In this document: piece by piece, positions 18,683 through 64,000 of the stretch | How positions within the stretch are numbered: position 1 is the first letter of the stretch | Layout: the number at the start of each line of letters is the position of its first letter | Source of the DNA: Candidatus Zhuqueibacterota bacterium | GTDB lineage: Bacteria > Zhuqueibacterota > Zhuqueibacteria > Thermofontimicrobiales > Thiofontviventaceae | DNA: 64,000 bases | Direction: 5' to 3' | Assembly: GCA_016926625.1 (NCBI GenBank) | Contig: JAFGOE010000125.1 | Span: 21,341 to 85,340, forward strand | Notes under the pieces: generated by a model | Seen by the model: only the letters and a program-made list of their open reading frames with translations | The model's database searches: none | What the model was told of the DNA's origin: nothing | Position numbers and translations under genes: made by a program

Positions 18683-18716
18683 TGCAATAGACAAGTTGAG
18701 GAAGACAGATAGACTG

Positions 18717-19448: not shown

Positions 19449-19480
19449 CATTATTTTTACTAACATGAGATTCGAGAATT

Positions 19481-26824: not shown

Positions 26825-27928
26825 ATGAACCTTGAAAATAAATTGAAAATTTTACACATCGCTCCGGTCAACACCGCAGGTGTTCCTTATGCCTTCATGG
26901 ATGCGGAGCGTCAGCTCGGTTATCAAAGCCGCCTGGTAACGCTCCATCGACATCCCAATAACTTTCCGGAAGATATCTGCCTCGATCTGCCGTTTTTCAC
27001 TTTCCCTGGTATCGATACGATCAAATCAGTACTGCGCCAACATCGTACCACCATCAAGAGCCATAATTTCGAAACGTCCAGTACAGAACTGCCCCCGAAA
27101 TGGAAGCCTGCTAATGCGATTGAAAAGGGATTAATTCACCAGCGGGAAAAGCTATGGTCAAAAAAAATCGCCGCGTTCTGCGACGAGATCGATTTACCGT
27201 CATTCGATATCATCCAGTTGGACGGAGGACTGGGCTTTTATCGTGATGCCAGGATCATCGAGTCGCTGAAGAGATCGAACAAGACCATTGTATGCTGTTA
27301 TACGGGTAGCGACCTGAGGATACGCGGAGTGATTCCGGCCATCGATCGTTTGAGCGACCTGAATGTAACCGTTGAATTCGATCATTTAAAATTACATCCA
27401 AACATCCATCATGTGTTTTTCCCTTTCAATTGGAAGGATATGCCGGAGCCAACACGCAGATCGTCGTCGAATCGAGTGATCATCGGGCATGCCCCTACAA
27501 ACAGGGCTGCCAAGGGAAGCGATATCATCATTCGTCAGGTTCAGGAACTCGAGGCGTTATATCCGATCGAGTTAATGCTCATCGAAAATGTATCGTATCG
27601 TGACGCGCTGCGATTGAAATCCACATGCGATATATTCATCGATCAGATAGGGAATTTAGGTTACGGTATCAACTCCCTTGAAGCTTTGGCGATGAAGATA
27701 CCAACCTGCTCGTGCCTTGCATCTGGTTTTGAACTGCTATATCCGGACCACCCCTTTGTGACCATCGATGAGAGTAACATGAAGTCGAAATTAATCGAAC
27801 TGATTGAAGACACAGATCTGAGAGCGAAAACGGGTCAATACGGACACGACTGGGTGATCGAGCACCACGATTCGCTCAAGGTCGTCTGTAAGATTCACCA
27901 ATTAATAGAAGACGTGCCAAAGCATTAA
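26825..27928 (+). CDS. Hypothetical protein with glycosyltransferase GT-B (GT4-like) C-terminal fold
   Basis: The C-terminal half shows the GT4 pattern (RAAKGSDIIIRQVQEL...DIFIDQ...SLEALAMKIPT...). The N-terminal half is of unknown origin. Confidence 0.45.
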   Translation: MNLENKLKILHIAPVNTAGVPYAFMDAERQLGYQSRLVTLHRHPNNFPEDICLDLPFFTFPGIDTIKSVLRQHRTTIKSHNFETSSTELPPKWKPANAIEKGLIHQREKLWSKKIAAFCDEIDLPSFDIIQLDGGLGFYRDARIIESLKRSNKTIVCCYTGSDLRIRGVIPAIDRLSDLNVTVEFDHLKLHPNIHHVFFPFNWKDMPEPTRRSSSNRVIIGHAPTNRAAKGSDIIIRQVQELEALYPIELMLIENVSYRDALRLKSTCDIFIDQIGNLGYGINSLEALAMKIPTCSCLASGFELLYPDHPFVTIDESNMKSKLIELIEDTDLRAKTGQYGHDWVIEHHDSLKVVCKIHQLIEDVPKH

Positions 27929-31892: not shown

Positions 31893-32528
31893 TTATCCGA
31901 TCTTTAATCCCGAGAATCCGAGGAAGGCTATGGACATCAATCCGGCCATGATAAATGCGATAGGAATACCTTTCAACGCTTCAGGAATTGGCGCCAATTC
32001 CAGTCGCTCTCTGATCCCTGCCATTAAAATCAAGGCCAGCGTGAAACCCACTCCGGCCGAGAAACCATGTACGATACTCTCGATAAACGAATAGTTTAGA
32101 TCGAGGTTTAGAATGGTGACGCCTAATATGGCGCAATTCGTCGTAATCAAAGGCAGATAAATACCGAGCGAACGATACAAACCGGGACTCAGCTTTTGGA
32201 TCACCATTTCCACGAACTGCACCAACGCTGCGATCACCAGTATGAAAGCGATTGTTTTCAGAAACATAAGATCAGGGGGTTCTTTTGCCGAAAACAGGTG
32301 ATAGAATAGGTTTGAGGGACTGGGCTTGAGCAAAAAATTATTGATCAGCCAGGTGGCCATCGATGCCAGGGTCATCACAAAGACGACGGCAAATCCCATT
32401 CCGATCGCGGAATCTATTTTCTTAGACACCCCAATGTAGGGGCAGATTCCGAGAAAGCGTGACAGAACGAAATTATTAATGAAGATCGATGAGATTGCGA
32501 TTATGAATAGACTTTTAACTTCCATCAT
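31893..32528 (-). CDS. rnfA: Rnf electron-transport complex subunit A
   Basis: The RnfA/NqrE family pattern is NNFVLSRFLGICPYIGVS...AIGMG. Confidence 0.8.
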   Translation of the reverse strand: MMEVKSLFIIAISSIFINNFVLSRFLGICPYIGVSKKIDSAIGMGFAVVFVMTLASMATWLINNFLLKPSPSNLFYHLFSAKEPPDLMFLKTIAFILVIAALVQFVEMVIQKLSPGLYRSLGIYLPLITTNCAILGVTILNLDLNYSFIESIVHGFSAGVGFTLALILMAGIRERLELAPIPEALKGIPIAFIMAGLMSIAFLGFSGLKIG

Positions 32529-32549
32529 GTTCCTCCGATACCGGCCATG

Positions 32550-33146
32550 CTATTTCTTCGTTTTTTTATCAATCCAATTAAAGAATCCCAGGTACAGGCC
32601 TAATGTAAGGAAGGCACCTGGAGGTAGAATGAGTATTAAAACAGGTTCAAAACCAGAGCCAAATACTGGCACACCCCACAATTTCCCATCCCCGAGCAGC
32701 TCTCTGGTCACTCCGAGAAGAGTCAGCGCCAGCATAAATCCGATCCCCATACCTAAACCGTCCAATAGAGAATAGAAAACAGAATTTTTGCCGGCGAATG
32801 CTTCCGCACGACCGAGTATGATACAGTTGACGACGATAAGCGGAACGAAGATTCCGAGAGATTTATGCAGATCTGGAGCGAACCCTGCCATGGCGAGATC
32901 CACGATCGTCACGAACGTGGCGATCACGACGATATAGATCGGGATTCTGATCTTTTTCGGAACCATATTGCGAATGAGGGAAATGATCACATTGGAGCAA
33001 ACGAGCACAAACGTAGCCGCTGCTCCCATCCCAATGGCGTTTTGCACGGAATTTGAAACAGCGAGAGTCGGACATAATCCTAAAACCAACCGGAATACAG
33101 GATTCTCCGCATAAAAGCCCTTGAAAAATTCTTTTGTCATCGACAT
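32550..33146 (-). CDS. rnfE: Rnf electron-transport complex subunit E
   Basis: The RnfE/NqrD family pattern is NPVFRLVLGLCPTLAVSNSVQNAIGMG. Confidence 0.8.
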   Translation of the reverse strand: MSMTKEFFKGFYAENPVFRLVLGLCPTLAVSNSVQNAIGMGAAATFVLVCSNVIISLIRNMVPKKIRIPIYIVVIATFVTIVDLAMAGFAPDLHKSLGIFVPLIVVNCIILGRAEAFAGKNSVFYSLLDGLGMGIGFMLALTLLGVTRELLGDGKLWGVPVFGSGFEPVLILILPPGAFLTLGLYLGFFNWIDKKTKK

Positions 33147-33160
33147 GTTTAAGTTCCTCT

Positions 33161-33748
33161 CTATTCCTTAACGGCTTCTTCGGCTTTTTGAAGGTGTTCT
33201 TTCAATACGTTCAATGCATCTCTGATCGAGTTCGTGACAGCGCGCGAGGAAATAGTCGCCCCTGTAATCGCTTTAATATTCCCACCATCCTGCTCTACCG
33301 CGAGGTCCTCTGGTGTTTTGCCCAAGAATTGTACCTGAAACCAGGGTTTTTCCTCACCATAGCGTATCTCTTCTATTTTTGTACCCAGGCCTGGTGTCTC
33401 CACCTGATGCAAAACGGTCAGCCCGATGATGGCGCCTGCTGTATCGACGCCGACCATGGTCTCGATCTCACTGGAATAGCCCTGTCCTTTCGCCACGATC
33501 GCGTAACCGACAAGTTCATTCTTTTCGGGTGTTTTATATCCTTTGTAGTACTCGACTTCAGAGCTGTCGACTTTAACGATCGCGTCTTTATGTGCCAGGG
33601 GAAGAGCAATTTTTAAGGCGTTTTCAATGACGAGTTTCTTTTGTTCATCAATTTTTGGTTTAGTAACAGAATTTACCATCGCCAGAGCGGCTGCCGCGAT
33701 AACGGTGACCAATAACAGGATACCACCTAATTTAATAATATCTTTCAT
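33161..33748 (-). CDS. rnfG: Rnf complex subunit G (FMN-binding)
   Basis: There is an N-terminal TM helix. The FMN-attachment site is TGATISSRAV. Confidence 0.75.
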   Translation of the reverse strand: MKDIIKLGGILLLVTVIAAAALAMVNSVTKPKIDEQKKLVIENALKIALPLAHKDAIVKVDSSEVEYYKGYKTPEKNELVGYAIVAKGQGYSSEIETMVGVDTAGAIIGLTVLHQVETPGLGTKIEEIRYGEEKPWFQVQFLGKTPEDLAVEQDGGNIKAITGATISSRAVTNSIRDALNVLKEHLQKAEEAVKE

Positions 33749-34785
33749 TTTTTTTTGACCTCGCCAAATACTTTAGGTTTCGAGTAACGATCAATTAACG
33801 GTACAGTTAAATTCATTAATAAGATTGAATATGAAACGCCTTCGGGATAACCTCCGACGAGTCGGATCAATACAGTGATGACGCCGCAACCCACACCGAA
33901 TATGATTCGTCCTTTATAAGTTACCGGAGAGGTGACCATATCCGTTGCCATGTAGAACGCCCCCAGAATCAAACCTCCGGCCAGAACATGGAAAATCGGA
34001 TCTCCTGAGAAAAGTCCCTCCGTCCCGCCGAAAATCCAGGAGAGAAGGGCGACGGTCCCGATGTAACTCAGAGGAATTTTGAGGCTAATATATCGTTTAT
34101 AAATCAGGAATAATGCTCCAAGCAATAGTAGCAGTACGGAGGTTTCACCGATACAGCCACCTATTCTACCGAAAAACAGATTGCTATAGGCGTCGGAAAG
34201 TTGGGAGAGCACCTCACCAGGAGGAACGATATCGTTTGTATCGGTGATTAAATTAGCGTTCGTGGCGATTGCGGTTTTCGCCTGTCGGAACACGTTCAGC
34301 GGCGTTGCAGAGGTGATAATGTCGATACCGGAGAGGGTTCCACCCCGGGGTATGGTTTTAAAGATGGTCATGTGAGTCGGCCATGACGCCAGCAAAAATG
34401 CTCTTCCTAACAAAGCAGGATTCATGGGATTATATCCCAATCCACCGAACACCACCTTCCCGATGCTGATAGCAAACACAGATCCGATCATCGGAATCCA
34501 CCATGGAACTTCGGCCGGGACATTAAAAGCGAGAAGCAAACCGGTCAGCATAGCGCTACCGTCGGAGATAGTGATTGGTTTCTTTAATAACTTTTCTAGA
34601 ACAGCCTCGGTAAGGACGGCGGATACCATTCCGATCAGCATGACCCATAACGCTCGTTGTCCGAAAAAATATATCGCTCCGATCGCTGCCGGGACCAATG
34701 ATAATGTAACGGAATACATTATCCTGGGGATCGATTCACGATCCGTAATATGTGGAGAAGAAGAAACGAAAAATCTATTTTCCAT
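33745..34785 (-). CDS. rnfD: Rnf complex subunit D
   Basis: The product is polytopic. The RnfD/NqrB N-terminus is SSSPHI and the site ...GGYPEGVSYSIL is present. Confidence 0.85.
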   Translation of the reverse strand: MENRFFVSSSPHITDRESIPRIMYSVTLSLVPAAIGAIYFFGQRALWVMLIGMVSAVLTEAVLEKLLKKPITISDGSAMLTGLLLAFNVPAEVPWWIPMIGSVFAISIGKVVFGGLGYNPMNPALLGRAFLLASWPTHMTIFKTIPRGGTLSGIDIITSATPLNVFRQAKTAIATNANLITDTNDIVPPGEVLSQLSDAYSNLFFGRIGGCIGETSVLLLLLGALFLIYKRYISLKIPLSYIGTVALLSWIFGGTEGLFSGDPIFHVLAGGLILGAFYMATDMVTSPVTYKGRIIFGVGCGVITVLIRLVGGYPEGVSYSILLMNLTVPLIDRYSKPKVFGEVKKK

Positions 34786-34842
34786 GCATCTGCTTCCTTA
34801 TAAATTTTCGCTCGAATGAATAAATTCAGATTTTCGATTCGA

Positions 34843-36174
34843 TTAAGCTGCTTCTTTTCGCATCTTATTTACTTTTAATTTACCATATTTAAACAGATGA
34901 ACGTGTCTAATCTTTGAGGGGCACACGTAAGAACAGCACCCGCATTCGATGCAATCGAGTATATTGTTTTCTGCTGCTTCCTCATATTTTTGATGTTCCA
35001 CGAGCTGTGCCAATATATTCGGCATCAGGTTCATCGGGCAGGAGTCCACGCAGCGCGCGCATCGAATGCACGGTTTCGACTCCGGCATAGAGGCGTCCTT
35101 CCTGTTCAGGACGACGATGCCCGAGGTCCCCTTCGTTATAGGCGCTTCAAGGTCGGCCTGGGCAATTCCCATCATCGGACCGCCATTGATCACCTTGGCA
35201 GCATCATCGGTGAGTCCGCCACAGAATTCAAACAGATTAGCCATTGGGGTACCGATGCGCGTCAGTACGTTCGCTGGTTCCCTGATGCCTTTACCCGTAA
35301 CGCTCACGACCCGTTCATAGAGTGGCTTATTCATGGCGACAGCTTCGTAAATAGCCCTGGCAGTTCCGGTGTTCTGCACAAGACAGCCGACGTCCATGGG
35401 CAACCCTCCTGCAGGTACCTTGCGGTCGGTTACGGCTTTAATCAACTGTTTTTCCGCGCCCTGTGGATATTTTACATGAAGTCCGATCACGCTGATCGAA
35501 TCGCCTTGCTGTTTAATCAGTTTCCGCAGCGTCTTGATGGCTTCCGGTTTGTTCTTTTCGATCGCGATGTAGCCCTGTTTGCAATCCAAAATTTTCATTA
35601 AAATTCTCATCCCGGCCAGGACTTCATCACCGTGTTCGATCATCACCCGTGCGTCTGAGGTTAGATACGGTTCACACTCAGCGCCGTTGAGAATGAGTAT
35701 ATCGATCTTCTTGGGTGGCGGAGGTGACAATTTTACATGGGTTGGGAACGCAGCTCCCCCCATCCCCGCGATTCCGGCTTCAAGAATTTTCTTCTTCATT
35801 TCCGATACGGATAGATCAAAGTAATTCTCGTTCAGTTTGATCTCCGGAACTAACTCTTCTTCACCCTCTGTTTCGATGATAATGGACAGGATGTTGCCTC
35901 CGAGAGGATGAGGTCGAGGTTCTATGCTCTTCACCACGCCGGTGACCGATGAATGTGCTGGTACCGACACGAATCCTTTCGCATCGCATACCTTTTGTCC
36001 GGTCAGCACTCTCTGTCCCGGTTCTACACAAGGAGTTCCCGGAGCGCCGATGTGTTGCTGCACCGGAATAATGATATAAGGAGGAACAGGCATTTTTTCG
36101 ATCGCCTTTTTTTCCGCCAATTCTTTCTTTCCGGGCGGATGAACACCGCCTTTGAATGACAATCTTCTAAACAA
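34843..36174 (-). CDS. rnfC: Rnf complex subunit C (NADH-binding, two [4Fe-4S] ferredoxin motifs)
   Basis: The N-terminus is FKGGVHPP and the two ferredoxin clusters are CIRCARCVDSCP and CIECGCCSYVCPS. The start is TTG (GAGG SD 8 nt upstream); an in-frame stop lies just upstream. Confidence 0.85.
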   Translation of the reverse strand: MFRRLSFKGGVHPPGKKELAEKKAIEKMPVPPYIIIPVQQHIGAPGTPCVEPGQRVLTGQKVCDAKGFVSVPAHSSVTGVVKSIEPRPHPLGGNILSIIIETEGEEELVPEIKLNENYFDLSVSEMKKKILEAGIAGMGGAAFPTHVKLSPPPPKKIDILILNGAECEPYLTSDARVMIEHGDEVLAGMRILMKILDCKQGYIAIEKNKPEAIKTLRKLIKQQGDSISVIGLHVKYPQGAEKQLIKAVTDRKVPAGGLPMDVGCLVQNTGTARAIYEAVAMNKPLYERVVSVTGKGIREPANVLTRIGTPMANLFEFCGGLTDDAAKVINGGPMMGIAQADLEAPITKGTSGIVVLNRKDASMPESKPCIRCARCVDSCPMNLMPNILAQLVEHQKYEEAAENNILDCIECGCCSYVCPSKIRHVHLFKYGKLKVNKMRKEAA

Positions 36175-39592: not shown

Positions 39593-40798
39593 TTATTTCG
39601 GTCTCACAAACCATTTCTCACCCCCGCTAACCGAAAAGGTGAGCTTATAAATCGTCTCCTCGAACATGTTGCTGTCCAGATTCCCTCGCTTGCCATATGC
39701 AAATGCGAAATCGAGCCGCCCGAAACCTCCATAATAGGGCAGACCGAAACCAAGGGTGGCTAAGTATTCTGAAGCCTTGTTCCCCTGATCATCCGGGTAA
39801 CCCAGAGAACTGAAATTAAAACCAATCCTGTAAGTTATCTTCTTGCGATAAGGCTGCAAGTAACCCGATACCGGCAATAGTTCACAACCAAGAGACACAC
39901 TATGATTATCGTCGAGATTTCCCGAGGTCACACCATCCAGTTCAAATTTCGATAGTGGATGATACAGGTAGTCGACCAGGAAACGAGTTCTATTCTGTAG
40001 CGTGTAGGATGTTCCTGCTCCGAACATGTGAGGTATCCAGAGGTCAGAGCGGACAGTCTTAGTAGCCTCTCCGAAGGTATATTTTATTCTGTTGTTGACA
40101 TTCAGAGGAACTCCTGATGCATATATAGCACCCACAGACCAATTCTTCGTGATGTCAGCAATTAGACCTGCAGTAACGCTTCCCCCCCACATCTTGGTTA
40201 CGATCTGATCCTTTGTATCTCTGAATAAATCCGAGACAAAGATTACCCTCCAAACTTCCTCTGCTTTCCCGAAATTGAAATTTGCGTTGATCCCTAAGAA
40301 ATAGCGCCCGCGATAACTCGTAGCTACACCGAAAGAAATTTGGTTCAATCCGCCCTTGATGTCGATTTCACGCGTGTACTTATTACCCGTTGAAAGGTAA
40401 TCTGATTCGCTCGCCTCTAAGAAATTATAAGTCAGCGGACGCATACCAAATCCGATGACCAACTTATCAACGATGAGCGGTACGGCGAAGCGAACGCCAT
40501 TGACATTGGTATAATGGCTCAAACCATCCATATCAAGCGACTTGATATCCGTGCTTTCGTGCATCAGTTCAGCCTCAAACTTGGTAACCGGTATGGCGAT
40601 CATGGCCGCGGGATTCAGTACATTGATCGAATTAGGATCTGTGACGCTTAAACCGGTACCGCCACGCCCCAGAAGAGTAGGCTGATTGAAATAACTGAAC
40701 TGACCCAGTCGATTTATCTTATAAGTCGTCCCTGCTGAAAGTGAGGTCACGGTGACAGAGCAACACATCAGAATGAATATAATCTTCTTCTTTAACAT
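39593..40798 (-). CDS. Putative outer-membrane beta-barrel protein (FadL/PorV-like fold suspected)
   Basis: A signal peptide is present. Alternating amphipathic beta-strand character is Gly/Tyr/Phe-rich and there are no TM helices. The family assignment is uncertain. Confidence 0.35.
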   Translation of the reverse strand: MLKKKIIFILMCCSVTVTSLSAGTTYKINRLGQFSYFNQPTLLGRGGTGLSVTDPNSINVLNPAAMIAIPVTKFEAELMHESTDIKSLDMDGLSHYTNVNGVRFAVPLIVDKLVIGFGMRPLTYNFLEASESDYLSTGNKYTREIDIKGGLNQISFGVATSYRGRYFLGINANFNFGKAEEVWRVIFVSDLFRDTKDQIVTKMWGGSVTAGLIADITKNWSVGAIYASGVPLNVNNRIKYTFGEATKTVRSDLWIPHMFGAGTSYTLQNRTRFLVDYLYHPLSKFELDGVTSGNLDDNHSVSLGCELLPVSGYLQPYRKKITYRIGFNFSSLGYPDDQGNKASEYLATLGFGLPYYGGFGRLDFAFAYGKRGNLDSNMFEETIYKLTFSVSGGEKWFVRPK

Positions 40799-55026: not shown

Positions 55027-55317
55027 ATGGAGTTAGAAAATTTAAGGGAAGCGATCAACGAAATCGACAGAGAATTGGTCGTGTTATTGAACAAAAGAGC
55101 AGACCTTGCCCTGCGGATCGGTAAAATCAAATTGCTTCATCGGATGCCGATTCACGACATGGCGCGGGAACTGATTGTGCTGGAAAATATCACTTCGGCA
55201 AACAATGGGCCTCTAAAAGATCTGCAGCTGAGAACGATATTTAAAACAATTATGAGTTCGTGCCGTGAAGTACAAAATCATTTAGGGGAGCAATATGATT
55301 ATCGTAATGAAGAATGA
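55027..55317 (+). CDS. Chorismate mutase (AroQ class)
   Basis: The size is 96 aa. The sequence LENLREAINEIDRELVVLLNKRADLALRIGKIK matches the AroQ helical CM. Confidence 0.85.
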   Translation: MELENLREAINEIDRELVVLLNKRADLALRIGKIKLLHRMPIHDMARELIVLENITSANNGPLKDLQLRTIFKTIMSSCREVQNHLGEQYDYRNEE

Positions 55318-56308
55318 CGCCTCAGAGGCGCAAATTAAGGCTGTCGCTGATAAGTTAGTTGATTTGGGATTAAAGGTACATCGAAGCGATGGTGAAGCCA
55401 GAACGATCATCGGTGCTATCGGGGACACCTCCAAGGTCGATGATATCGTCATCAAGTATATGGCCGGTGTTCTCAATGTGGTGCGCATTATTGAACCGTA
55501 CAAATTAGCGAGTCGCAATTTTCATGAAGATTCCAGCGTAGTCGAGATCGGAGATATCAGGATCGGTGCTGAAAAAGTGATCATCATTGCTGGGCCCTGC
55601 GCTGTGGAATCCGAAGATCAGGTCACGGAAATAGCGAAGTTAATTAAGGAAGCGGGCGCATCGATATTGAGAGGCGGAGCTTTTAAACCCCGATCATCAC
55701 CCTATTCATTTCAGGGATTGGGAGAACAGGGTTTAAAATTACTGCACGCCGCGGGTAAACAATACGAATTACCTGTCGTCTCTGAAATTTTAGAAGCCTC
55801 TCATATTGAGCTGATGGATCAATATGTGGATATCTATCAGGTCGGTGCGAGGAACATGCAAAACTTCTGGTTGTTACGGGAATTGAGTAAGATCAGAAAA
55901 CCCGTGCTGTTAAAACGTGGCATGGCTGCGACCATCGAAGAATTGTTGATGGCAGCCGAGTACCTGATGTCGGGTGGAAATTATAATGTTATCCTGTGCG
56001 AGCGCGGCATAAGGACCTTCGAGAATTACACTCGAAACACGATGGATATCTCCGCGATCCCTGTAGTCAAAAAACTAAGCCATCTCCCGATTATCGCCGA
56101 TCCGAGTCATGGGACAGGGATACGCGATCATGTGGCACCGATGGCCAGAGCCGCAGTTGCAGCCGGTGCCGACGGCCTGATGATCGAGGTCCACAACAAT
56201 CCCGCCGCCGCTCTCTCGGATGGGCCGCAATCTTTGCTCCCGAATCAATTTAAAATGCTCATGGAGGAGTTAAAAATTATCTCATGGGCTATCGGAAGGT
56301 CGGTGTAG
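55295..56308 (+). CDS. aroF: 3-deoxy-7-phosphoheptulonate (DAHP) synthase, class I-beta, with N-terminal ferredoxin-like regulatory domain
   Basis: The catalytic core ([13 protein letters not shown]...[13 protein letters not shown]...IADPSHGTG) is of KDO8PS-like I-beta type. The N-terminal extension of about 70 aa resembles the Thermotoga-type FL/ACT domain. The gene overlaps the CM gene by 23 nt. Confidence 0.85.
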
Positions 56309-56310
56309 AC

Positions 56311-57414
56311 ATGAGCGATGTATCGAAAATAACAATCATCGGACTGGGTCTCATCGGAGGATCGCTGGGACTTGCATTATCCAATAAAAAAGAATACGAT
56401 AGAATCTACGGAATCGATGAATTTTCCGTGGTTCACCACGCCATGGAACGCGGCATCATAGATCAGGGATTTACACCGGAGGATAGCGAAACAGCCTTAC
56501 GAGACTGTGACCTGGTCTTCCTCTGCACACCCATTTACACCATTCTCGACTACCTGAAAACGATAACGAAATGGATACGACCAGGGACAGTGGTCTGCGA
56601 CGTCGGCAGCACAAAGGGTCAAATCGTCAATGCAGCGAATCAATATTTTAACGATGCATCGGTTTATTTTCTGGGGACTCACCCAATGGCCGGCGCTGAA
56701 ACCCGAGGCATCGAAGCGGCGGATGCCTATCTGTTTGAAAACATCGTATGGGTGTTGACTCCATTTCAAAAAATTCCTGACCAGAAAATCAGGGACATCG
56801 GAACAATTCTGGAATCGATTGGTGCAAAAGTATTGTTACTCTCACCGGAACTGCACGATAAGATTGCTGCTGCCGTGAGTCATTTGCCGCAGATGGCCGC
56901 GATCGCTTTGACCAATCTAATATCAAGACTGCAACAGGAAAACATGAACTACATCCGACTCGCTGCAGGAGGATTCCGTGATATGACCCGTATCGCATCC
57001 AGCCCTTACTCTGTTTGGAAAGACATCTGCGGAACCAACAAAGAACAAATCGCTTTCTTTATCGATCAGTTCATCGATGAATTAAAGAGAGTGAAAGAGC
57101 ATGTGCTGAACGATAAACTCGAGCCTGATTTTGAAAACTCGAACGTGACACGCCTCTCTATTCCGCGCGACACCAGAGGATTTCTGAAACCTGCTTACGA
57201 TGTCTCGATTGGCGTGCAGGACAAGCCGGGCGTCATTGCCGAAATCAGCACCGCGCTGGCGAACGAAGGCATCAACATCAAGGACATCGAGGTATTAAAA
57301 GTGCGTGAAGGTGAAGGCGGAACATTCCGCATGTCATTTTCGAGCAGCTCCGATAGAGACTGGGCAATTGGTATCATCCGTCATATCGGTTATTCATGTT
57401 ATGCACGTGATTAA
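56311..57414 (+). CDS. tyrA: Prephenate dehydrogenase with C-terminal ACT domain
   Basis: The NAD fold is ITIIGLGLIGGSLGLAL. The ACT domain is VSIGVQDKPGVIAEISTALANEGINIKDI. Confidence 0.85.
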   Translation: MSDVSKITIIGLGLIGGSLGLALSNKKEYDRIYGIDEFSVVHHAMERGIIDQGFTPEDSETALRDCDLVFLCTPIYTILDYLKTITKWIRPGTVVCDVGSTKGQIVNAANQYFNDASVYFLGTHPMAGAETRGIEAADAYLFENIVWVLTPFQKIPDQKIRDIGTILESIGAKVLLLSPELHDKIAAAVSHLPQMAAIALTNLISRLQQENMNYIRLAAGGFRDMTRIASSPYSVWKDICGTNKEQIAFFIDQFIDELKRVKEHVLNDKLEPDFENSNVTRLSIPRDTRGFLKPAYDVSIGVQDKPGVIAEISTALANEGINIKDIEVLKVREGEGGTFRMSFSSSSDRDWAIGIIRHIGYSCYARD

Positions 57415-57428
57415 ATCAGGGAATATGA

Positions 57429-58736
57429 ATGAACATTTCATTATCACCATGTTTTAATTTATCCGGTATCATATCGATGAACGGTGATAAATCGATCTCT
57501 CATCGGGCGTTGATGTTTGGCGCAATCGCTCAGAGTGTAACACATATCACTAATTTATCAACCAGCGAAGATGTGAGCAGTACGGAACGATGTCTCAAAC
57601 AATTAGGGATTAAGATCGTGAGACAGGAAGGGGTAACCATGGTCCACGGAGTGGGTCTTCGCGGATTCCAAAGACCGTTACGACCCCTGGATGCAGGGAA
57701 TTCAGGTACTACCATGCGGCTGCTGACTGGATTACTCGTGGGGCAGGATTTTGATGCGATATTGACGGGTGATGAATCACTACGGAAACGGCCGATGAAA
57801 CGCATTTTAGAACCCTTATCTCGCATGGGTGCGTCGATTAAGGCGACAACGGGGAATTTCGCACCGCTGAATATTCACGGATCTCCGATCTTTTCAACGA
57901 CCTATACCATGCCCATCGCCAGCGCACAGGTAAAATCCTGTCTGCTGATGGCGGCGTTATATGCCAGAGGAGTGACAACGATCCATGAAAATGCCGCGAC
58001 ACGAAATCATACAGAACTCATGTTAGCAGATTTCAACGTTAAAATCGACGTCGAAGCTCATCGCATCTCGATCAAGGGCGATCAACAACTGTTAGCAAAT
58101 GATATTGCGGTTCCTGGTGATGTCTCCTCGGCCTCATTTTTCCTCGCCGCGGCGCTACTTACTCCGAACTCAACGGTGACCATCAGAAATGTGGGACTCA
58201 ATCCGACGCGTCTTGGATTCATCAGAGTGCTGCAAAAGATGGGCGCCCAGATCGTTATCAATCCTGTCATCAGTAATCAACAGGAGCCTTTTGGAGATAT
58301 CACTGTCCGAACCTCCCCCTTGCGAAGCATCACCCTGACGGCGGAAACTATTCCCTCCCTCATCGATGAACTGCCCATTTTCGCCATTATCGCTTCGCAG
58401 GCTAAAGGAGTTACCACAGTCACCGGTGCGAAAGAGCTGCGATTTAAAGAGAGCGATCGTTTGAGAGCTATATCGCATAATTTGAAACAAATGGGAGTCG
58501 AGATTAATGAGTTGGACGATGGTTTTATCATCTATGGGATACAACAATTAAAAGGTGCCCATATCGATTCATATCATGATCATCGTATCGCCATGGCGTT
58601 TTCGGTTGCGGCACTCATAGCGTCTGGCGTGACCACGATTCACGATGCTGAATGTATATCGATATCTATGCCCGAATTCTTTCAGGTGATGGATTCGATC
58701 ATTCAGAATTCGAATTATTATACGACTATTGTATAA
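57429..58736 (+). CDS. aroA: 3-phosphoshikimate 1-carboxyvinyltransferase (EPSP synthase)
   Basis: GDKSISHRALMFGAIAQ is the EPSPS N-terminal motif. LDAGNSGTTMRLL and RPM are also present. Confidence 0.9.
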   Translation: MNISLSPCFNLSGIISMNGDKSISHRALMFGAIAQSVTHITNLSTSEDVSSTERCLKQLGIKIVRQEGVTMVHGVGLRGFQRPLRPLDAGNSGTTMRLLTGLLVGQDFDAILTGDESLRKRPMKRILEPLSRMGASIKATTGNFAPLNIHGSPIFSTTYTMPIASAQVKSCLLMAALYARGVTTIHENAATRNHTELMLADFNVKIDVEAHRISIKGDQQLLANDIAVPGDVSSASFFLAAALLTPNSTVTIRNVGLNPTRLGFIRVLQKMGAQIVINPVISNQQEPFGDITVRTSPLRSITLTAETIPSLIDELPIFAIIASQAKGVTTVTGAKELRFKESDRLRAISHNLKQMGVEINELDDGFIIYGIQQLKGAHIDSYHDHRIAMAFSVAALIASGVTTIHDAECISISMPEFFQVMDSIIQNSNYYTTIV

Positions 58737-58753
58737 CAAGAAATAGGAATGAT

Positions 58754-59614
58754 ATGCTAAAATTTGCCATTATAGGAGATCCCGTGGCGCATTCGCTGTC
58801 GCCTCTGATGCATTCATCGTTCTATGATTATTATCGCATTGATGCTGATTACAACGCCATTCTGGTTAAACCGAACGATTTAAAGGAATTTCTGCAAAAT
58901 CTCAGGGACAGCGATTATCTGGGGATCAACGTCACAATTCCACATAAAGAGAGTGTCATCCCTTTTCTTGATGCTGTGAGTAAAGAGGCGCAAACGATAG
59001 GAGCTGTGAATTGTATCCTTAGAAGAAATGGGAAACTGATAGGTTATAACACGGATATGAGCGGCTTCGAAGCGAGTCTGCCGGTTTCAATGTATGGAGA
59101 AAAGACAGTAATCATCGGAGCAGGAGGTGCAGCACGTTCCATCTTGACCGCCTGCATCAACGCTGGTTCCCAGCAGATCGTCATCTTTAACCGCACACCA
59201 GAGAAAGCGGAGAAATTGAGAACGGAGTTCTCAGGGAAGTTTCCTCATACCGTACTTAAAGCTTATGCACTGGCTGATCCGATACTAAAATCGGAATTAT
59301 CACAAGCCAGTCTACTCATCAACGCGACATCGTCTGGAATGGAACCCGACTCTGATGAAAGACTGCCGCTGCGACCGGAGGATCTGCATCAGGGAATTTT
59401 CGTATACGATGTCGTTTATACCCCACCGACAACGGATCTGATCAAAATCGCTATTCAAGCCGGGGTCAGCTATTTAAATGGACTCGATATGCTGATACAC
59501 CAGGGGCTGGAGTCGTTAAAAATTTGGTTAAATCATGAATTACCGTTCCAAAAATCGCTGATAAAACGAACAAAATCCGAATTGATGAGTAAATTATTAG
59601 ATAATAACTCGTGA
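58754..59614 (+). CDS. aroE: Shikimate dehydrogenase
   Basis: The N-terminus is FAIIGDPVAHSLSPLMH and the NADP site is GAGGAARS. The start was moved to MLKF (ATG 58754). Confidence 0.9.
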   Translation: MLKFAIIGDPVAHSLSPLMHSSFYDYYRIDADYNAILVKPNDLKEFLQNLRDSDYLGINVTIPHKESVIPFLDAVSKEAQTIGAVNCILRRNGKLIGYNTDMSGFEASLPVSMYGEKTVIIGAGGAARSILTACINAGSQQIVIFNRTPEKAEKLRTEFSGKFPHTVLKAYALADPILKSELSQASLLINATSSGMEPDSDERLPLRPEDLHQGIFVYDVVYTPPTTDLIKIAIQAGVSYLNGLDMLIHQGLESLKIWLNHELPFQKSLIKRTKSELMSKLLDNNS

Positions 59615-59636
59615 AAAATAACTAAAACAGATCATC

Positions 59637-60182
59637 ATGCAACTACAAACCCACATCTTTTTAATCGGCTTTATGGGATGCGGCAAGACAACAATTGGTA
59701 AAGATCTTGCGGTTAAATTTAATGTTCAGTTTATCGATACAGACGTAATCATTTCTGAGAAAACAAATCTCTCAATACCGGATATATTTGAGAAATGGGG
59801 AGAAAGTAAATTCAGAGAAATCGAAACACAGGTCATTGGGTCTATCGTCGCGCTTCCCCCATCCATCATATCATTAGGTGGAGGAGCTATTTTATCGGAA
59901 CAAAACCGTTCTGTCATTTTCAATTCGGGTCTGTCGATTTACCTCAAATGGCGAGTAAAAACGCTTTTCAAACGGCTGGCTGATTGTGATAGCAGACCGC
60001 TTTTAAGCAATATCCCTCAATCCAAATTGCTCGAACAGATCATGAGCATGATGAACGAACGATCAAAATATTATGAGCGCGCGCACATTGTCATACCCGG
60101 AGATCGATATAAAAATATTAATCTTTTGATTGAACACATAATTCATGAAATCTCAACCTATAAAATTCCAACGATCCGTTAA
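59637..60182 (+). CDS. aroK: Shikimate kinase
   Basis: The P-loop is IFLIGFMGCGKTTIGKDLA. The size is 181 aa. Confidence 0.9.
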   Translation: MQLQTHIFLIGFMGCGKTTIGKDLAVKFNVQFIDTDVIISEKTNLSIPDIFEKWGESKFREIETQVIGSIVALPPSIISLGGGAILSEQNRSVIFNSGLSIYLKWRVKTLFKRLADCDSRPLLSNIPQSKLLEQIMSMMNERSKYYERAHIVIPGDRYKNINLLIEHIIHEISTYKIPTIR

Positions 60183-61251
60183 TCTAAAGACGAAAAGCTA
60201 TCCCGTCTATATCGGGAGCAATTCAACCACGAAACTATCTCCTCTGCTCACTACTCACGGAATCGAAAACCGTATAATTATCATCACCGACGATATTGTG
60301 GAAGGTCTCTATGGGAATCGATTATTAGAACAGTTAAGCGCTGACCACTACGAGGTCTCTATCTATTCTTTTCCAAACGGTGAACGCTCTAAATTTAGTA
60401 TCACGGTTGAACAGATTTATTCCTGGATGTTAGAGAACAACTGCAAACGCGACGTCACGATCATTGCACTGGGCGGCGGCGTGGTCGGTGATATTGCAGG
60501 ATTCGTTGCGGCGACCTTCATGAGAGGCGTACGTTATGTTCAAATTCCGACGACCCTGCTCGCGCAGGTCGATAGCAGTGTCGGCGGCAAGGTTGGAATC
60601 AATCATGAGCTTAGCAAAAACGTCATCGGTGCGTTTTATCACCCCCTGTTCGTGCTTATCGATCCTGCCGTGCTCAGCACGCTGAACCAACGTGAGATCA
60701 CATGTGGTCTTGGAGAGGTAATAAAATACGGACTTATTAAAGACATTGATCTATTCGTGGAACTCGAGGCACATTTGTATGATCTTTATGAATCAGACAA
60801 TCAACGTTGGATCGAAAAAATTATCTATCAGTGTTGCTCTATCAAAGCAGACATCGTCGAGCAAGACGAGCAGGAGAGCGGTATCAGACGTATTTTAAAT
60901 TTCGGGCATACGATCGGACATGCACTGGAAGCGGCGACAGGTTATGATTATCTCAATCACGGGGAGTCAATATTGTATGGAATGCTATCCGCATCCTATG
61001 TGGCACATCGGTTGAACTACCTGCAACGTCATGAATTCGAGCGTATCCTCCGGGTGCTCGCATTGATTGACAAGCCCCCTCTGCCTGACGATCTGACTGA
61101 GGACATGCTGATGCAACGGGTTAGACATGACAAAAAACAACAGGAATCAGGACTCCATTTCGTGTTATTGGATCGCATCGGACATGCGAAAATTGAATTA
61201 GTATCCGATCAGCTGGTACGCAGCGGCATTGCTCATCTCCTTCACAGTTAA
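60145..61251 (+). CDS. aroB: 3-dehydroquinate synthase
   Basis: The NAD site is GGGVVGDIAGF. The metal site is ...GHTIGHALE. Confidence 0.9.
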   Translation: MKSQPIKFQRSVNLKTKSYPVYIGSNSTTKLSPLLTTHGIENRIIIITDDIVEGLYGNRLLEQLSADHYEVSIYSFPNGERSKFSITVEQIYSWMLENNCKRDVTIIALGGGVVGDIAGFVAATFMRGVRYVQIPTTLLAQVDSSVGGKVGINHELSKNVIGAFYHPLFVLIDPAVLSTLNQREITCGLGEVIKYGLIKDIDLFVELEAHLYDLYESDNQRWIEKIIYQCCSIKADIVEQDEQESGIRRILNFGHTIGHALEAATGYDYLNHGESILYGMLSASYVAHRLNYLQRHEFERILRVLALIDKPPLPDDLTEDMLMQRVRHDKKQQESGLHFVLLDRIGHAKIELVSDQLVRSGIAHLLHS

Positions 61252-62507
61252 TCTGTCCTGCCTTTCCAGGCTCGTAAGCTACGAATCCGTTCCACCACGG
61301 GCGGGTGTGAATAATAAAATTTAGCGAAAAAGGGATGCGGATGCAGATTCGACAAATTATCCTTTGATAATTTAATTAGTGCACTGGCAAGCGGCTCAGG
61401 ATCACCAATTAACTCACACGCGAATCGATCGGCCTCACGTTCATGTTTTCTGGAAATATAGGCACTGAGCGGTGTGAAGGGGAATGATACAATTCCTAAG
61501 ACAAAACTCAGTAACATAATTTTTACGAAAAATGTTGAATCTGAAATTTGGAATGTTTCTATCAGGATATCTGATTTTAAGATCCGAAATGCCAGATATA
61601 TACCGGCAAAGCCTATCAGTTCCGATATAATGATCGTCTTCAGGATATGTTTCTTCTTCCAATGACCGGCTTCATGAGCCAATACCGAGATAATCTCATC
61701 ATGATTCATCTTCTGTAATAACGTATCAAACAAGACAATGCGTTTTACTTTGCCGATACCCGTAAAATATGCGTTCGTATGCCTGCTCCGTTTCGATGCA
61801 TCGATCTTGAAAACGCGACTCACCTTTAATCCTGCTTTTTCCATGACGTTCTTGATTTTGTCCTCCAACCCCTCTTCTTCGGTGATGGGGGTAAATTTAT
61901 TGAACAGAGGTTCGATGACGTACGGGGAGATATACATTAAAAACAGGCTGAAGATCAGGAAAAATGCCCATACCCAGAGCCACCAACTATCCGGGAAACT
62001 CTGGATCAACCACAAACCGATGGAACCGATAATGCCCATCAGGATCACAGAGATGATGAACGATTTAAGCAAATCGATGAGCCATAGTTTAAATGTCTTC
62101 GTGTTAAAACCGTATTTGTTTTCGATCTTGAATGTTTCATAAAGATCGAACGGGATATCGAGTATTGTGGATATAAAACTTAACAGGATAAAATAAACGA
62201 GTCCTTTTAATATGAAGCAAATCGTAAATCCATGAATCCACGTGTTATACATATCCAGCAGTCCACCGAAGATAAATAATAACAGGATCACATTATCGAA
62301 GATGGAAGAGATGTATCCGAAACGACTGTGTTCGACGGTGTAGTCGCGTGTCTTTTTCAGCAGCCCGGCATCGATATATCCATCAAATTCAGGCGGAATA
62401 GTCGCCCCATGTTTTTTGAGATACTTCAAGTTCAGAAATTTTAGATAGTAACTGAATGAAACGATTATCAGATATAGAAAGAGAAGTGCGAATTGAATCC
62501 TGTTCAT
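61248..62507 (-). CDS. M48-family (Ste24/HtpX-like) membrane zinc metalloprotease
   Basis: Multiple TM helices are followed by HEAGHWKKKH (HExxH), a downstream ExxxD and the C-terminal HPP motif. Confidence 0.8.
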   Translation of the reverse strand: MNRIQFALLFLYLIIVSFSYYLKFLNLKYLKKHGATIPPEFDGYIDAGLLKKTRDYTVEHSRFGYISSIFDNVILLLFIFGGLLDMYNTWIHGFTICFILKGLVYFILLSFISTILDIPFDLYETFKIENKYGFNTKTFKLWLIDLLKSFIISVILMGIIGSIGLWLIQSFPDSWWLWVWAFFLIFSLFLMYISPYVIEPLFNKFTPITEEEGLEDKIKNVMEKAGLKVSRVFKIDASKRSRHTNAYFTGIGKVKRIVLFDTLLQKMNHDEIISVLAHEAGHWKKKHILKTIIISELIGFAGIYLAFRILKSDILIETFQISDSTFFVKIMLLSFVLGIVSFPFTPLSAYISRKHEREADRFACELIGDPEPLASALIKLSKDNLSNLHPHPFFAKFYYSHPPVVERIRSLRAWKGRTD

Positions 62508-62510
62508 ATA

Positions 62511-63062
62511 TTAATCCTTATTCAAATTCCGGATACTAGTTGCAGATTTAACTGTTGTGCTTATGATTTTCTCAATAAGCCTTGACGTTGATATTTTCTC
62601 CAGACAGGGTGCGATGACAATCTTACCGCCGTTCATTTCGACAATGTGGCGTTCTTCCTGGTCAATCGTATCGATGGTATAATCTCCCCCTTTCACATAT
62701 ATGTCGGGCTTTAACCGACTCAATATATCAAGCGGTCTTGGTTCATGGAAAACGATGAGATAATCGATGTAAACGATGGAGTCTAAAACCAGGGCTCGTT
62801 CGACCTGGGACATCAGCGGTCGATCGTTCCCTTTGAGGGATTGAACCGACGCATCTCTGTTTAATCCGACGATCAGTATATCCCCTGTGTTTTTAGCGAA
62901 TTTAAGGTAGATGACATGGCCCGCATGCAGAATATCAAAACAACCGCTCGTCCAGACGACTTTCGCACCCTGTTCACGAAGCGGATTGATCCGCTCTATT
63001 AAGGTATCGAGTGGGAACAACTTGTTGATTTGGGTGAGATCGGGGTAGCTCAATGTCTTCAT
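62511..63062 (-). CDS. Heptose-1-phosphate adenylyltransferase-like cytidylyltransferase (RfaE/HldE domain II type), stand-alone
   Basis: The HxGH nucleotidyltransferase motif is GCFDILHAGHVIYL. Other matches are LIVGLNRDASV and KGGDY. The C-terminal ISTSRLIEKI is also present. Confidence 0.75.
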   Translation of the reverse strand: MKTLSYPDLTQINKLFPLDTLIERINPLREQGAKVVWTSGCFDILHAGHVIYLKFAKNTGDILIVGLNRDASVQSLKGNDRPLMSQVERALVLDSIVYIDYLIVFHEPRPLDILSRLKPDIYVKGGDYTIDTIDQEERHIVEMNGGKIVIAPCLEKISTSRLIEKIISTTVKSATSIRNLNKD

Positions 63063-63076
63063 AACATAAATTTATC

Positions 63077-64000
63077 TTACGCTCTCTCTTGCTTTAAAAT
63101 CACCTGCGCAGCTTCCAACAAATCAGATACGATATAATCGGCCTTAGCTGCCTCAATTTCAGATGCGTCGTAAAGATCTGTTTTTATCAGTATCGTCTTT
63201 AAATTTGCGTTGCGGCCTGTCTCCACATCGGTTAATCTGTCGCCTATAAAATAACTATGCGTCAGATCGATATTCATTTCTTCATTGGCGCGTTTGATCA
63301 GACCTATTTTAGGTTTACGACAATCACATTCTTCGGCGAGACTATGAGGGCAAAAATAGATCTTATCGATTAGGATATCGTTCTGATGCAGTTTATTCAA
63401 CATGACGCTGTTGACTCTGTAAAAATCCTGTTTCGTAAAATATCCCAGACCGATGCCTCCCTGATTGGTCACGATCACCAGACGATATCCCATATTTTTT
63501 ATCATTCGCATTCCATCGATGGCATTAGGGAGAAATTGAAATTCATCCGGAGCACTTAAGAAGCCCTTTTCTATATTGATTGTACCATCTCGATCAAGGA
63601 AAACCACGGGCGACGCCTTGGTGGATCTGCGTTCAAAATGTCCCACGTCCTCTATTTCCTCCACGTAATGAACAACGCTGTTAACGGATCCTGAGATCTT
63701 TTCGATAATTTGCGATGTCGAAATATCGACCTGCACCGGTATTAACTTCACCTGGCCTCCGAGACTTTCGATGACCCCTTTGGAGGTCAATTTGTCGGGG
63801 GAGTAATCACCGGCTTTGAAATAAATATGTGGCTGAAGTTCCTGGATATTGCGTTCATTTCGGCGTTCATCGAATAAAAAGGCGTAATCCACGACTTCCA
63901 GGGCAGCGATCAGACGAATTCTGTGCTGCTGTGGAATAATAGGTCGATTTTCACCCTTGTAGCGCTTGACCGATGCATCGGAATTGACGGCGACAATGAG
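63077..64000 (-). CDS. gmhB: Bifunctional fusion: N-terminal heptose-1-P adenylyltransferase-like domain plus C-terminal D,D-heptose 1,7-bisphosphate phosphatase (GmhB, HAD); 5' end lies outside the window
   Basis: Translating the same frame upstream of the track's GTG at 63892 continues without a stop to the window edge. It gives LIVAVNSDASVKRYKGENRPIIPQQHRIRLIAALEVVDYAFLFDE...FKAGDY...STSQIIEKI, the adenylyltransferase domain. The GmhB motifs follow: FLDRDGTIN, VTNQ and FCPH...CDCRKPKIGLI...IGDRLTDVETG. Confidence 0.75.
   Translation of the reverse strand, partial: LIVAVNSDASVKRYKGENRPIIPQQHRIRLIAALEVVDYAFLFDERRNERNIQELQPHIYFKAGDYSPDKLTSKGVIESLGGQVKLIPVQVDISTSQIIEKISGSVNSVVHYVEEIEDVGHFERRSTKASPVVFLDRDGTINIEKGFLSAPDEFQFLPNAIDGMRMIKNMGYRLVIVTNQGGIGLGYFTKQDFYRVNSVMLNKLHQNDILIDKIYFCPHSLAEECDCRKPKIGLIKRANEEMNIDLTHSYFIGDRLTDVETGRNANLKTILIKTDLYDASEIEAAKADYIVSDLLEAAQVILKQERA

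Follow-up and report, generated by a model that had tools for sequence, protein, structure and literature searches.

At the end of the window (the whole 64-kb stretch of DNA analysed here, from a candidate-division KSB1 bacterium) there are two adjacent genes that each carry an HldC-type nucleotidyltransferase domain. The minus-strand open reading frame at positions 63077–64000 runs for 307 codons without interruption up to a stop codon and is the 3′ part of a longer gene. The missing 5′ end was found on a public Logan contig of 11.7 kb (L001), which shows 100% identity to the window across 1,201 overlapping bases. The complete gene encodes a 359 amino acid protein (N-terminus MDDKIKS...), and there are only 4 open codons upstream of its ATG. 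From the N- to the C-terminus the protein displays 14 residues that precede the transferase domain, the HldC-type transferase domain itself (termed NT1), a linker, and a complete GmhB domain; the motifs VVFLDRDGTIN, ECDCRKPK and FIGDRLTD are all present in the translated window segment. A second transferase (termed NT2), whose open reading frame includes GCFDILHAGHVIYL, stands alone downstream. The positions are shown in Table 1.

Table 1. Features of the fusion locus and its downstream neighbours (window positions unless stated otherwise)
Feature	Position	Strand	Description
NT1, first 52 residues	beyond window end, L001:4503-4658		includes GFTSGAFDILHAGH; basis L001
NT1, C-terminal two thirds	63686..64000	-	residues 53-157 of the 359-aa fusion; HldC-type heptose-1-phosphate nucleotidyltransferase
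Inter-domain linker	63614..63685	-	residues about 158-181 (~25 residues), predicted flexible
GmhB domain of fusion	63080..63613	-	DRDGT, TNQ, CPH...CDCRKP zinc loop, GD...D; stop codon 63077-63079
Spacer between fusion gene and NT2	63063..63076	-	14 nt; no terminator-like site
NT2	62511..63062	-	183-aa stand-alone HldC-type nucleotidyltransferase, canonical HldE-domain-II/HldC clade
M48/Ste24-like membrane metallopeptidase	61248..62507	-	Peptidase_M48_N + Peptidase_M48; starts 3 nt past the NT2 stop

A reading made from the sequence alone (termed the sequence-only reading) had described an N-terminal cytidylyltransferase-fold domain of the HldE domain II type fused to a complete GmhB, and the translation and the family matches given below bear this out. 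That reading had also allowed for a sugar kinase in the upstream portion; the recovered 5′ sequence encodes transferase. No kinase domain is present in the full-length protein, and as the next gene upstream is SIS/GmhA-like, there is none ahead of NT1.

The fusion is a real and conserved gene arrangement. It is common in full length to at least 120 protein clusters with 52%–100% identity, drawn from NCBI, JGI, ENA and Logan assemblies, and so did not arise as an artefact of frameshift or assembly. A stop codon or frameshift between the two domains, raised earlier as a possibility, is seen neither in the open reading frame nor in the public contig of identical sequence, and a closed 5.2-Mb genome carries the same cassette of genes. 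Frameshift, mis-assembly or a chimeric MAG contig has a negligible probability as the source of the fusion or of the duplicate transferase. Other organisms share the architecture: among the matches listed in genome and metagenome scans (the counts are illustrative), it is widespread in metagenomes and occurs in other phyla. A rough neighbour-joining tree (BLOSUM62, without support values) places the fusions such that they appear to have arisen at least twice.

The GmhB domain passes both models of the beta-type phosphatase, with 180.0–180.5 bits for NF006506 (the GmhB equivalog, cutoff 178) and 155.4–155.8 bits for TIGR00213 (cutoff 149.6), and falls below the alpha-type model NF050049 (143.7 vs. 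a cutoff of 250). It has ~38% identity to E. coli GmhB, with the same catalytic and zinc-loop motifs (136 bits with PDB 2gmw; Foldseek TM 0.87 and rmsd 1.8 with 3l8e). The motifs DRDGT, TNQ, CPH...CDCRKP and GDRLTD are invariant across 21 aligned orthologs. The domain is found in a heptose context, with an HldC-type domain as its fusion partner and a GmhA-like gene immediately upstream. By the family models it is predicted to be a complete beta-type heptose-1,7-bisphosphate 7-phosphatase. Unlike the E. coli enzyme, it is tethered covalently to a nucleotidyltransferase. The tether is poorly conserved in an alignment of 21 fusion orthologs, and an AF2 model of the fusion (pTM 0.52) has a pLDDT below 50 at residues 158–176; both domains are confidently folded and display no fixed geometry relative to each other.

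The part of NT1 within the window matches Pfam CTP_transf_like over its residues 1–105 and gives 113 bits with NCBIfam rfaE_dom_II. For full-length NT1, rfaE_dom_II (TIGR02199) is the best-scoring transferase model at 172.0 bits, below its curated cutoff of 181.5. NT1 aligns with B. pseudomallei HldC (BpHldC, PDB 5x9q) at 99 bits, and the AF2 model superimposes on BpHldC 5xf2 with a TM of 0.88 and an rmsd of 2.1, which shows the cytidylyltransferase (Rossmann-like) fold. NT2 gives a closely similar picture. It matches CTP_transf_like (5.6e-19) and scores 168.8 bits with rfaE_dom_II, again below the cutoff yet the best transferase model, and 99.9 bits with 5x9q (sequence comparison only). Thus the stand-alone paralog that had been reported directly downstream is found 14 nt from the fusion gene. 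It has 119 stand-alone orthologs, many of which are called HldC in KSB1 genomes by NCBI. Both transferases are of the HldE domain II type (PF01467, CTP_transf_like), and neither has a match to PF00483 (NTP_transferase, the fold of HddC and the GDP-heptose alpha pathway).

NT1 and NT2 both carry the signatures FDILHAGH (HxGH) and ISTS. The motifs HxGH, N59, K69, RP, K116, DY and S-T-T/S are kept in ~120 orthologs of each copy; at least 118 of 120 sequences have H37, G39, H40 and S-T-(T/S). NT2 departs from the pattern in only 2 of 48 conserved columns, against a median of 1, and a degenerate or inactive NT2 is thereby ruled out. The suggestion of an inactive regulatory copy is thus contradicted, since all catalytic motifs are kept in both. 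The two transferase domains have a 42% identity (E = 2e-38). In the neighbour-joining tree NT2 groups with the canonical HldE/HldC sequences, and NT1 lies in a separate clade of fusions only. A simple tandem duplicate, as had been assumed, is not what is found: each copy comes from an old clade of its own, with a separate origin, and a recent duplication is ruled out by the tree together with the clade-specific signatures.

These signatures lie in the proposed sugar-phosphate binding residues of BpHldC, which are Asn30, Asn59, Lys69, the Lys100 loop and Lys116 (PMC7993394). N59, K69 and K116 are kept in NT1 and NT2. Asn30 is replaced by Ser in 120/120 NT1 domains, and the window NT2 also has Ser there. 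The loop K100-T101-P102 is Arg-Arg-Asn in all 120 NT1 domains, and an Ala117 substitution in the sugar-phosphate pocket is likewise invariant in the NT1 clade. NT1-type fusions of other phyla show x-Asn-Asn at the Lys100 loop. The invariant changes at Asn30 and the Lys100 loop fall in BpHldC substrate motifs (PMC7993394), so that the substrate of NT1 could differ.

Nucleotide preference has one known sequence marker. An Arg at position 5 of the STT motif (STTR5) marks heptose nucleotidyltransferases that are promiscuous for CTP and UTP (PMC11461863 and PMC11573728). The window NT1 (VQVDISTS) and NT2 (CLEKISTS) both have Ile at this position and lack the Arg; a preference for ATP is therefore predicted for both. 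Among the NT2 orthologs 16 of 119 have Arg and 17 have Lys, and none of the 120 NT1 domains has either. The STTR5 marker is not strictly required for NTP promiscuity.

The genes are arranged, in part past the window end, in the order HAD-IA phosphatase-like, GmhA-like, NT1::GmhB, NT2 and M48 peptidase. Six genomes, which belong to KSB1, Zhuqueibacterota and unclassified relatives, carry this cassette (loci L001, L002, L003, L007, L088 and L089; CP070762.1 is an example of a complete genome that carries it), and the M48 peptidase is its conserved last gene, in the same place in all six. Some relatives (L005 and L090) have the fusion without an adjacent NT2. For 19 fusion clusters the longest contig is equal in size to that of an NT2 cluster, which suggests that these fusions and the matching NT2 genes are on the same contig. 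A scan for promoters and terminators, overall no richer than in shuffled sequence, showed no terminator on the same strand between the genes of the cassette; this is consistent with co-transcription, and the cassette may form an operon-like unit.

The GmhA-like gene encodes a putative sedoheptulose-7-P isomerase of 232 aa and ends 12 nt upstream of the fusion gene. Its protein scores 112.6 bits with TIGR00441 against a cutoff of 209.45, a shortfall attributed to an insertion of ~27 aa: the alignment with solved GmhA structures (88 bits) consists of two blocks split by this insertion, and the catalytic blocks GNGGS, H..E, STSG and Q..H are all visible. The HAD-IA gene was considered as a beta-phosphomutase that would replace kinase and phosphatase; this found no support, the best matches being generic HAD-IA phosphatases.

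The window also carries the LPS genes kdsB, kdsA, kdsC, kdsD, an lpxL-like gene, lptC, lptA and lptB, and by its gene content the organism is predicted to make Kdo-containing LPS. A heptose kinase, an HldD epimerase and a GT9 heptosyltransferase were found neither in the 64-kb window and an extra 5.5 kb nor in the 10 kb around any fusion of the KSB1 type. HldD and GT9 gave no match in a Pfam scan of all larger window open reading frames, and no kinase was detected in the window by a PfkB-motif regular expression or by an HMM made from nine kinases of the fusion loci. A profile search of a set of 5.8 billion proteins gave, among the 120 matches listed, only Woesearchaeota/Nanoarchaeota-type kinases, none of which matched a KSB1 contig in length. 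Of the gmhA gene and heptose kinase that the sequence-only reading had proposed to look for nearby, the first has a GmhA-like candidate directly upstream and the second was not found in the window or in the 10 kb around the KSB1-type fusions. A complete pathway in this organism would therefore depend on genes elsewhere. In other lineages there are clusters with gmhA and a PfkB heptose kinase whose sole transferase is an NT::GmhB fusion, so that exactly four activities are encoded (e.g. L013, L018, L020, L021, L023, L094, L095 and L096). The kinases there are backed by Pfam and by source names; an E. coli HldE N-terminal domain served as the phmmer probe only, and its matches were validated in the same way.

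The transferase domain shares the fold and motifs of domain II of E. coli HldE (RfaE) and belongs to the same pathway. The packaging differs, as the sequence-only reading had claimed: in HldE the partner is a PfkB kinase domain (steps 2 and 4), whereas here an N-terminal transferase is joined to a phosphatase (steps 3 and 4) and there is no kinase domain. The monodomain NT2 resembles the split HldA/HldC system of Burkholderia and Neisseria and clusters with BpHldC (5X9Q/5XF2). However, BpHldC has the STTR5 Arg (FEHDRSTT) where NT2 has Ile, no hldA kinase is nearby, and a second, fused transferase is present. Heptose nucleotidyltransferases (HENases) have been classed as monodomain, kinase/transferase and isomerase/kinase/transferase types (Tang et al., Science 2024, as summarised in PMC11461863 and PMC11573728). 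NT2 belongs with the monodomain type and the fusion is another multi-domain packaging of the four activities, but a transferase/phosphatase didomain is missing from the three types listed in those summaries. A GmhB-type HAD-IIIA domain joined to an enzyme from its own or an adjacent pathway is also seen in HisB, a GmhB-derived phosphatase fused to IGP dehydratase (PMC9798254), and in the HddC-like::GmhB, GT9::GmhB and NT::GmhB::HATPase_c fusions found in this analysis. These have other partner domains, and steps 3 and 4 of the beta (ADP-heptose) route are linked in the HldC-type fusion alone.

The locus is probably best explained by a bifunctional NT1::GmhB acting at two consecutive steps. Its GmhB domain would remove the 7-phosphate of heptose-1,7-bisphosphate (step 3), and the tethered HldC-type NT1 would then convert heptose-1-phosphate and NTP to NDP-heptose (step 4). 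NT2 would be a canonical monodomain HldC, and the step-2 kinase (HldA type) would be encoded elsewhere in the genome. The substrates and the nucleotide used are predicted here from comparison with related enzymes. The scores of both transferases just under the curated rfaE_dom_II cutoff count against this explanation, as do the low TIGR00441 score of the GmhA-like protein, the invariant NT1 substitutions at Asn30 and the Lys100 loop, and the failure to find a kinase, HldD or GT9 in the regions covered. Alternatively, NT1 and NT2 may use different nucleotides and make, for instance, ADP-heptose and CDP- or UDP-heptose for different glycans; two nucleotide-heptose products had been suggested by the sequence-only reading. 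The synthesis of CDP- and UDP-heptose by such enzymes is documented (PMC11461863 and PMC11573728), the copies come from different old clades that were held together over long evolutionary distances, and the Arg and Lys residues in NT2 orthologs but not in NT1 would fit two products. The presence of Ile at the promiscuity position in both window copies and the lack of a visible second set of heptose-using genes nearby make this unlikely. An arrangement where one copy is the working HldC and the other an isozyme without a distinct role is also held to be improbable. Both copies look like competent HldC enzymes, some relatives have no NT2 next to the fusion, and in other phyla the fusion suffices by itself; but the catalytic residues are fully conserved in either copy in ~120 clusters each, and six divergent genomes have kept the gene pair, which argues for selection on both. 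That both transferases were retained for so long would reflect some division of labour, by substrate or NTP preference or within a hetero-oligomer, and not redundancy alone.

It is quite doubtful that the fusion-only NT1 clade, with its Ser30, Arg-Arg-Asn and Ala117, is a functionally distinct transferase, e.g. for the bisphosphate, another NTP or another sugar. A re-ordered pathway, in which NT1 adenylylates heptose-1,7-bisphosphate to ADP-heptose-7-phosphate, GmhB then dephosphorylates it, and NT2 takes heptose-1-phosphate, is very unlikely. Zhou et al. (Nature 2018) reportedly found that host adenylyltransferases adenylylate the bisphosphate to ADP-heptose-7-P, and the two extra arginines that all NT1 domains of the clade carry could bind a second phosphate. 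However, NT1-type fusions from other phyla lack the arginines, the model for the ordinary beta-bisphosphate phosphatase is passed by the GmhB domain, and the AF2 model has no fixed inter-domain geometry. The reading is purely inferential.

The gene arrangement is a variation on the well-known chemistry of ADP-heptose. NDP-heptoses are precursors of the LPS core and potent immune agonists that act through ALPK1. A search for transferase::GmhB fusions found no description in the searchable literature, and the didomain would be a fourth architecture beside the three that have been classified. As the only architecture that joins consecutive steps, it is a natural test case for substrate channelling. 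Automated annotation labels the fusion only as GmhB or “HAD-IIIA hydrolase” and the window NT2 only as a generic adenylyl/cytidylyltransferase; reconstructions of the pathway for KSB1-type genomes would therefore list the HldC step as missing, in error. If NT1 were indeed distinct, the NDP-heptose pathway of these bacteria would be branched or re-ordered, its two transferases would not be equivalent, and the classical HldA kinase would possibly be missing. That a fused transferase and a free one, each from its own clade, are kept side by side may point to functional specialisation.

The open reading frame that runs off the window end has a cytidylyltransferase-like family match in its first 105 residues and a complete GmhB phosphatase at residues 130–305. 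The transferase part covers positions 41–143 of 144 of the rfaE domain II model, and the GmhB part scores 180.5 bits with NF006506 (beta-heptose-1,7-bisphosphate 7-phosphatase equivalog, cutoff 178) and 155.8 with TIGR00213 (cutoff 149.6). All of the motifs quoted in the sequence-only reading are present in the window translation. A public 11.7-kb contig (L001, Logan SRR13394437) is 100% identical to the window across a 1,201-base overlap, adds 5.5 kb past the window end, and also encodes the 183-aa protein of the neighboring stand-alone transferase (NT2). The whole gene encodes 359 aa with the N-terminus MDDKIKSREALAVLCKKFRQEGKKIGFTSGAFDILHAGH, and the protein gives 172 bits with rfaE_dom_II and 180 with the GmhB equivalog. 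Only four open codons precede the ATG and an SIS protein is encoded upstream; thus the architecture is an HldC-type transferase (NT1), a linker and GmhB, with no kinase domain.

NT2 scores 168.8 bits with rfaE_dom_II (cutoff 181.5) and 5.6e-19 with Pfam CTP_transf_like. The GmhB domain is above its curated cutoffs and both transferases are slightly under theirs. The transferase domains of NT1 and NT2 share 42% identity (E = 2e-38). Translation, family scores and the completed gene thus confirm the fusion and the second transferase that the sequence-only reading had described. NCBI lists an identical fusion protein, assigned to a candidate division KSB1 bacterium and labelled as a phosphatase only.

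An AF2 model of the fusion, made from a 21-sequence alignment, displays two confident domains (mean pLDDT 84; pTM 0.52). The linker (residues 158–176) has a pLDDT <50; together with the pTM this points to a flexible connection that leaves the two domains in no fixed geometry in the predicted structure. In Foldseek searches the N-terminal domain resembles Burkholderia pseudomallei HldC (BpHldC; 5xf2, TM 0.88) and the C-terminal domain E. coli GmhB (3l8e, TM 0.87, rmsd 1.8); none of the matches is a solved chain with both domains.

Full-length fusions form at least 120 protein clusters (52–100% identity) across assemblies of NCBI, JGI, ENA and Logan, and their labels read KSB1, Calditrichaeota, Zhuqueibacterota or unclassified. 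In an alignment of 21 sequences, every catalytic residue of the two domains is invariant. The fusion belongs to a five-gene cassette that recurs in six loci (Table), with the gene order HAD / SIS-232 / NT1::GmhB / NT2 / (methyltransferase in some) / M48, and the peptidase and HAD-IA genes flank the heptose genes in all six cassette genomes. Among the matches listed, 19 fusion clusters have a longest contig equal in size to that of an NT2 cluster, which suggests that the two share a contig. A sister group (L005, L090) has the fusion alone, near uvrC.

Going upstream of the fusion, L001 encodes the SIS protein, the HAD-IA protein and an RND efflux pump. The best families of the SIS protein are all GmhA, yet its score of 112.6 bits is far below the cutoff of 209. 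It retains the GNGGS, H..E, STSG and Q..H blocks, and its alignment to solved GmhA structures falls into two parts, with an insertion of ~27 residues between GNGGS/H..E and STSG. The protein has an N-terminal extension, and is 232 aa long in all five cassette genomes with a reported called length.

Features in the window and in related public contigs (L numbers)
Feature	Location	Strand	Remarks
Truncated fusion ORF	window 63077-64000	minus	307 codons, stop TAA
NT2, 183 aa	window 62511-63062	minus	14 bases downstream of fusion; same family as NT1
M48/Ste24-like membrane peptidase	window 61248-62507	minus	starts three bases after NT2
SIS/GmhA-like protein, 232 aa	L001:3792-4490 (~window 64169-64867, past end)		ends 12 nt before fusion
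HAD-IA phosphatase-like gene, 251 aa	L001:2950-3705		
Five-gene cassette	L001, L007		
Five-gene cassette	L002		closed 5.2-Mb genome CP070762.1
Five-gene cassette	L003		Zhuqueibacterota MAG
Five-gene cassette	L088		75%-identical relative, same aro-gene synteny
Five-gene cassette	L089		KSB1 MAG
Fusion + gmhA + PfkB kinase	L013, L018, L020, L021, L023, L094, L095, L096		
LPS operon	window 11290-20926	plus	kdsB, pyrG, kdsA, kdsC, kdsD, lpxL-like acyltransferase, lptC, lptA, lptB, then rpoN
Aromatic amino-acid cluster	window 55295-61251	plus	DAHP synthase, prephenate dehydrogenase, aroA, aroE, aroK, aroB; aroK/aroB overlap 38 nt
Rnf-type ferredoxin:NAD oxidoreductase cluster	window 31893-36174	minus	ion-translocating; RnfC-, D-, G-like, two Rnf-Nqr membrane subunits; adjoined by tatC
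Mevalonate-diphosphate decarboxylase-like gene	window 4584-5591	minus	
PKD/Ig-repeat protein, 1,307 aa	window 6804-10727	plus	T9SS C-terminal sorting domain
367-aa ORF	window 26825-27928	plus	no Pfam match
401-aa ORF	window 39593-40798	minus	no Pfam match
NT1-type transferase + GmhB + C-terminal HATPase_c	L016:8328-10142; L019:142-2049		two independent Pseudomonadota MAGs
GT9 heptosyltransferase fused to GmhB	L079:8957-10609		Zixibacteria
NTP_transferase (HddC-like) fused to GmhB	L034:9230-10576		Acidobacteriota
PfkB kinase fused to SIS isomerase	L013:8479-10002		archaeal MAG
HldE in two ORFs	L087:9248-10723		PfkB, 229 aa; PfkB-C + transferase, 240 aa

Several other fusions of heptose genes were seen (Table). 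The triple fusion with HATPase_c, a GHKL/histidine-kinase-type ATPase domain, is a single uninterrupted open reading frame of 605 or 636 aa. The HldE of L087, in two ORFs, either carries a frameshift or is truly split; its transferase domain, at 55% identity, is closer to NT2 than any other non-KSB1 sequence among the matches listed. The aromatic amino-acid cluster converges on the heptose cassette in the window, with matching synteny in L088.

A rough neighbor-joining tree built from 67 transferase domains splits into two clades. All KSB1-type fusion domains (NT1) fall in the first, along with fusion domains from MAGs of Delongbacteria, Terriglobia, Bdellovibrionota and Pseudomonadota and from two DPANN-type archaeal MAGs. 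The second comprises NT2 and its orthologs, E. coli HldE domain II, BpHldC and further HldE/HldC sequences. Saccharibacteria fusions fall inside this canonical clade, and thus the transferase::GmhB fusion appears to have originated at least twice. A residue census in BpHldC numbering (PMC7993394) shows HxGH, N59, K69, R73-P74, K116, D119-Y120 and S-T-(T/S) conserved in both sets (120 NT1 domains, 119 NT2 orthologs). NT1 domains display N30 to S and K100-T101-P102 to R-R-N (120/120) and G117 to A (119/120); NT2 orthologs are canonical-looking at these positions. The window NT2 is typical of its group, deviating at two of 48 conserved columns. The separate clades and NT1-specific signatures rule out a recent tandem duplicate, and with the conserved motifs neither transferase looks inactive, contrary to the proposal of an inactive copy. 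NT1 and NT2 are thus old paralogs brought or kept together.

The proposal that two NDP-heptoses are made is not positively supported by this genome. According to two commentaries on Tang et al. 2024 (PMC11461863; PMC11573728), enzymes that can form CDP-/UDP-heptose as well are marked by an Arg at position 5 of (F/L)xxGxSTT (“STTR5”), although this residue is not a strict requirement. The window motifs are VQVDISTS (NT1) and CLEKISTS (NT2), i.e. Ile at this position in both. Arg is found in 0/120 NT1 domains and in 16/119 NT2 orthologs, with Lys in a further 17/119; two NDP-heptoses might be made in some relatives.

The organism makes Kdo-LPS and carries a long LPS operon (Table). The sequence-only reading had proposed looking for gmhA and a heptose kinase nearby; a GmhA-like gene is present. 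Neither the window nor L001 yielded a heptose kinase, an HldD or a GT9 heptosyltransferase, and no KSB1-type fusion had one of these within 10 kb. No KSB1 heptose kinase was among the 120 matches listed from a profile search of a large protein set. Many bacteria, including E. coli, have dispersed heptose genes, and thus their absence nearby is weak evidence. In other lineages the fusion immediately adjoins gmhA and a PfkB heptose kinase (identity backed by Pfam and NCBI names) and is the sole transferase there. The comparison gives good evidence for such fusions performing steps 3 and 4 in the synthesis of NDP-heptose.

In the proposed pathway, the GmhA-like protein would isomerize sedoheptulose-7-P, a putative kinase encoded elsewhere would form heptose-1,7-bisphosphate, the GmhB domain would remove the 7-phosphate, and tethered NT1 and/or free NT2 would activate heptose-1-P with ATP. 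The two transferases may be kept through different NTP or sugar preference, as a hetero-oligomer, or by redundancy. More speculatively, NT1 could act before the phosphatase, with its Arg-Arg, invariant in NT1 domains, binding the 7-phosphate.

HldE joins steps 2 and 4, whereas the fusion joins the consecutive steps 3 and 4. The published heptose nucleotidyltransferase types, as summarized in the two commentaries (PMC11461863; PMC11573728), are monodomain, kinase/transferase and isomerase/kinase/transferase; a transferase/phosphatase type is not among them. Full-text literature searches found no description of a transferase::GmhB fusion. A GmhB-type domain fused to IGP dehydratase is known in HisB (PMC9798254). 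Fusion proteins are already in public databases under automatic names, and both fusion domains and NT2 are recognizable members of known families. The fusion is a conserved, uncharacterized packaging of the ADP-heptose pathway, accompanied by a second transferase. Its significance would be greater if the NT1 clade has a function of its own, or if the organism really lacks the kinase.
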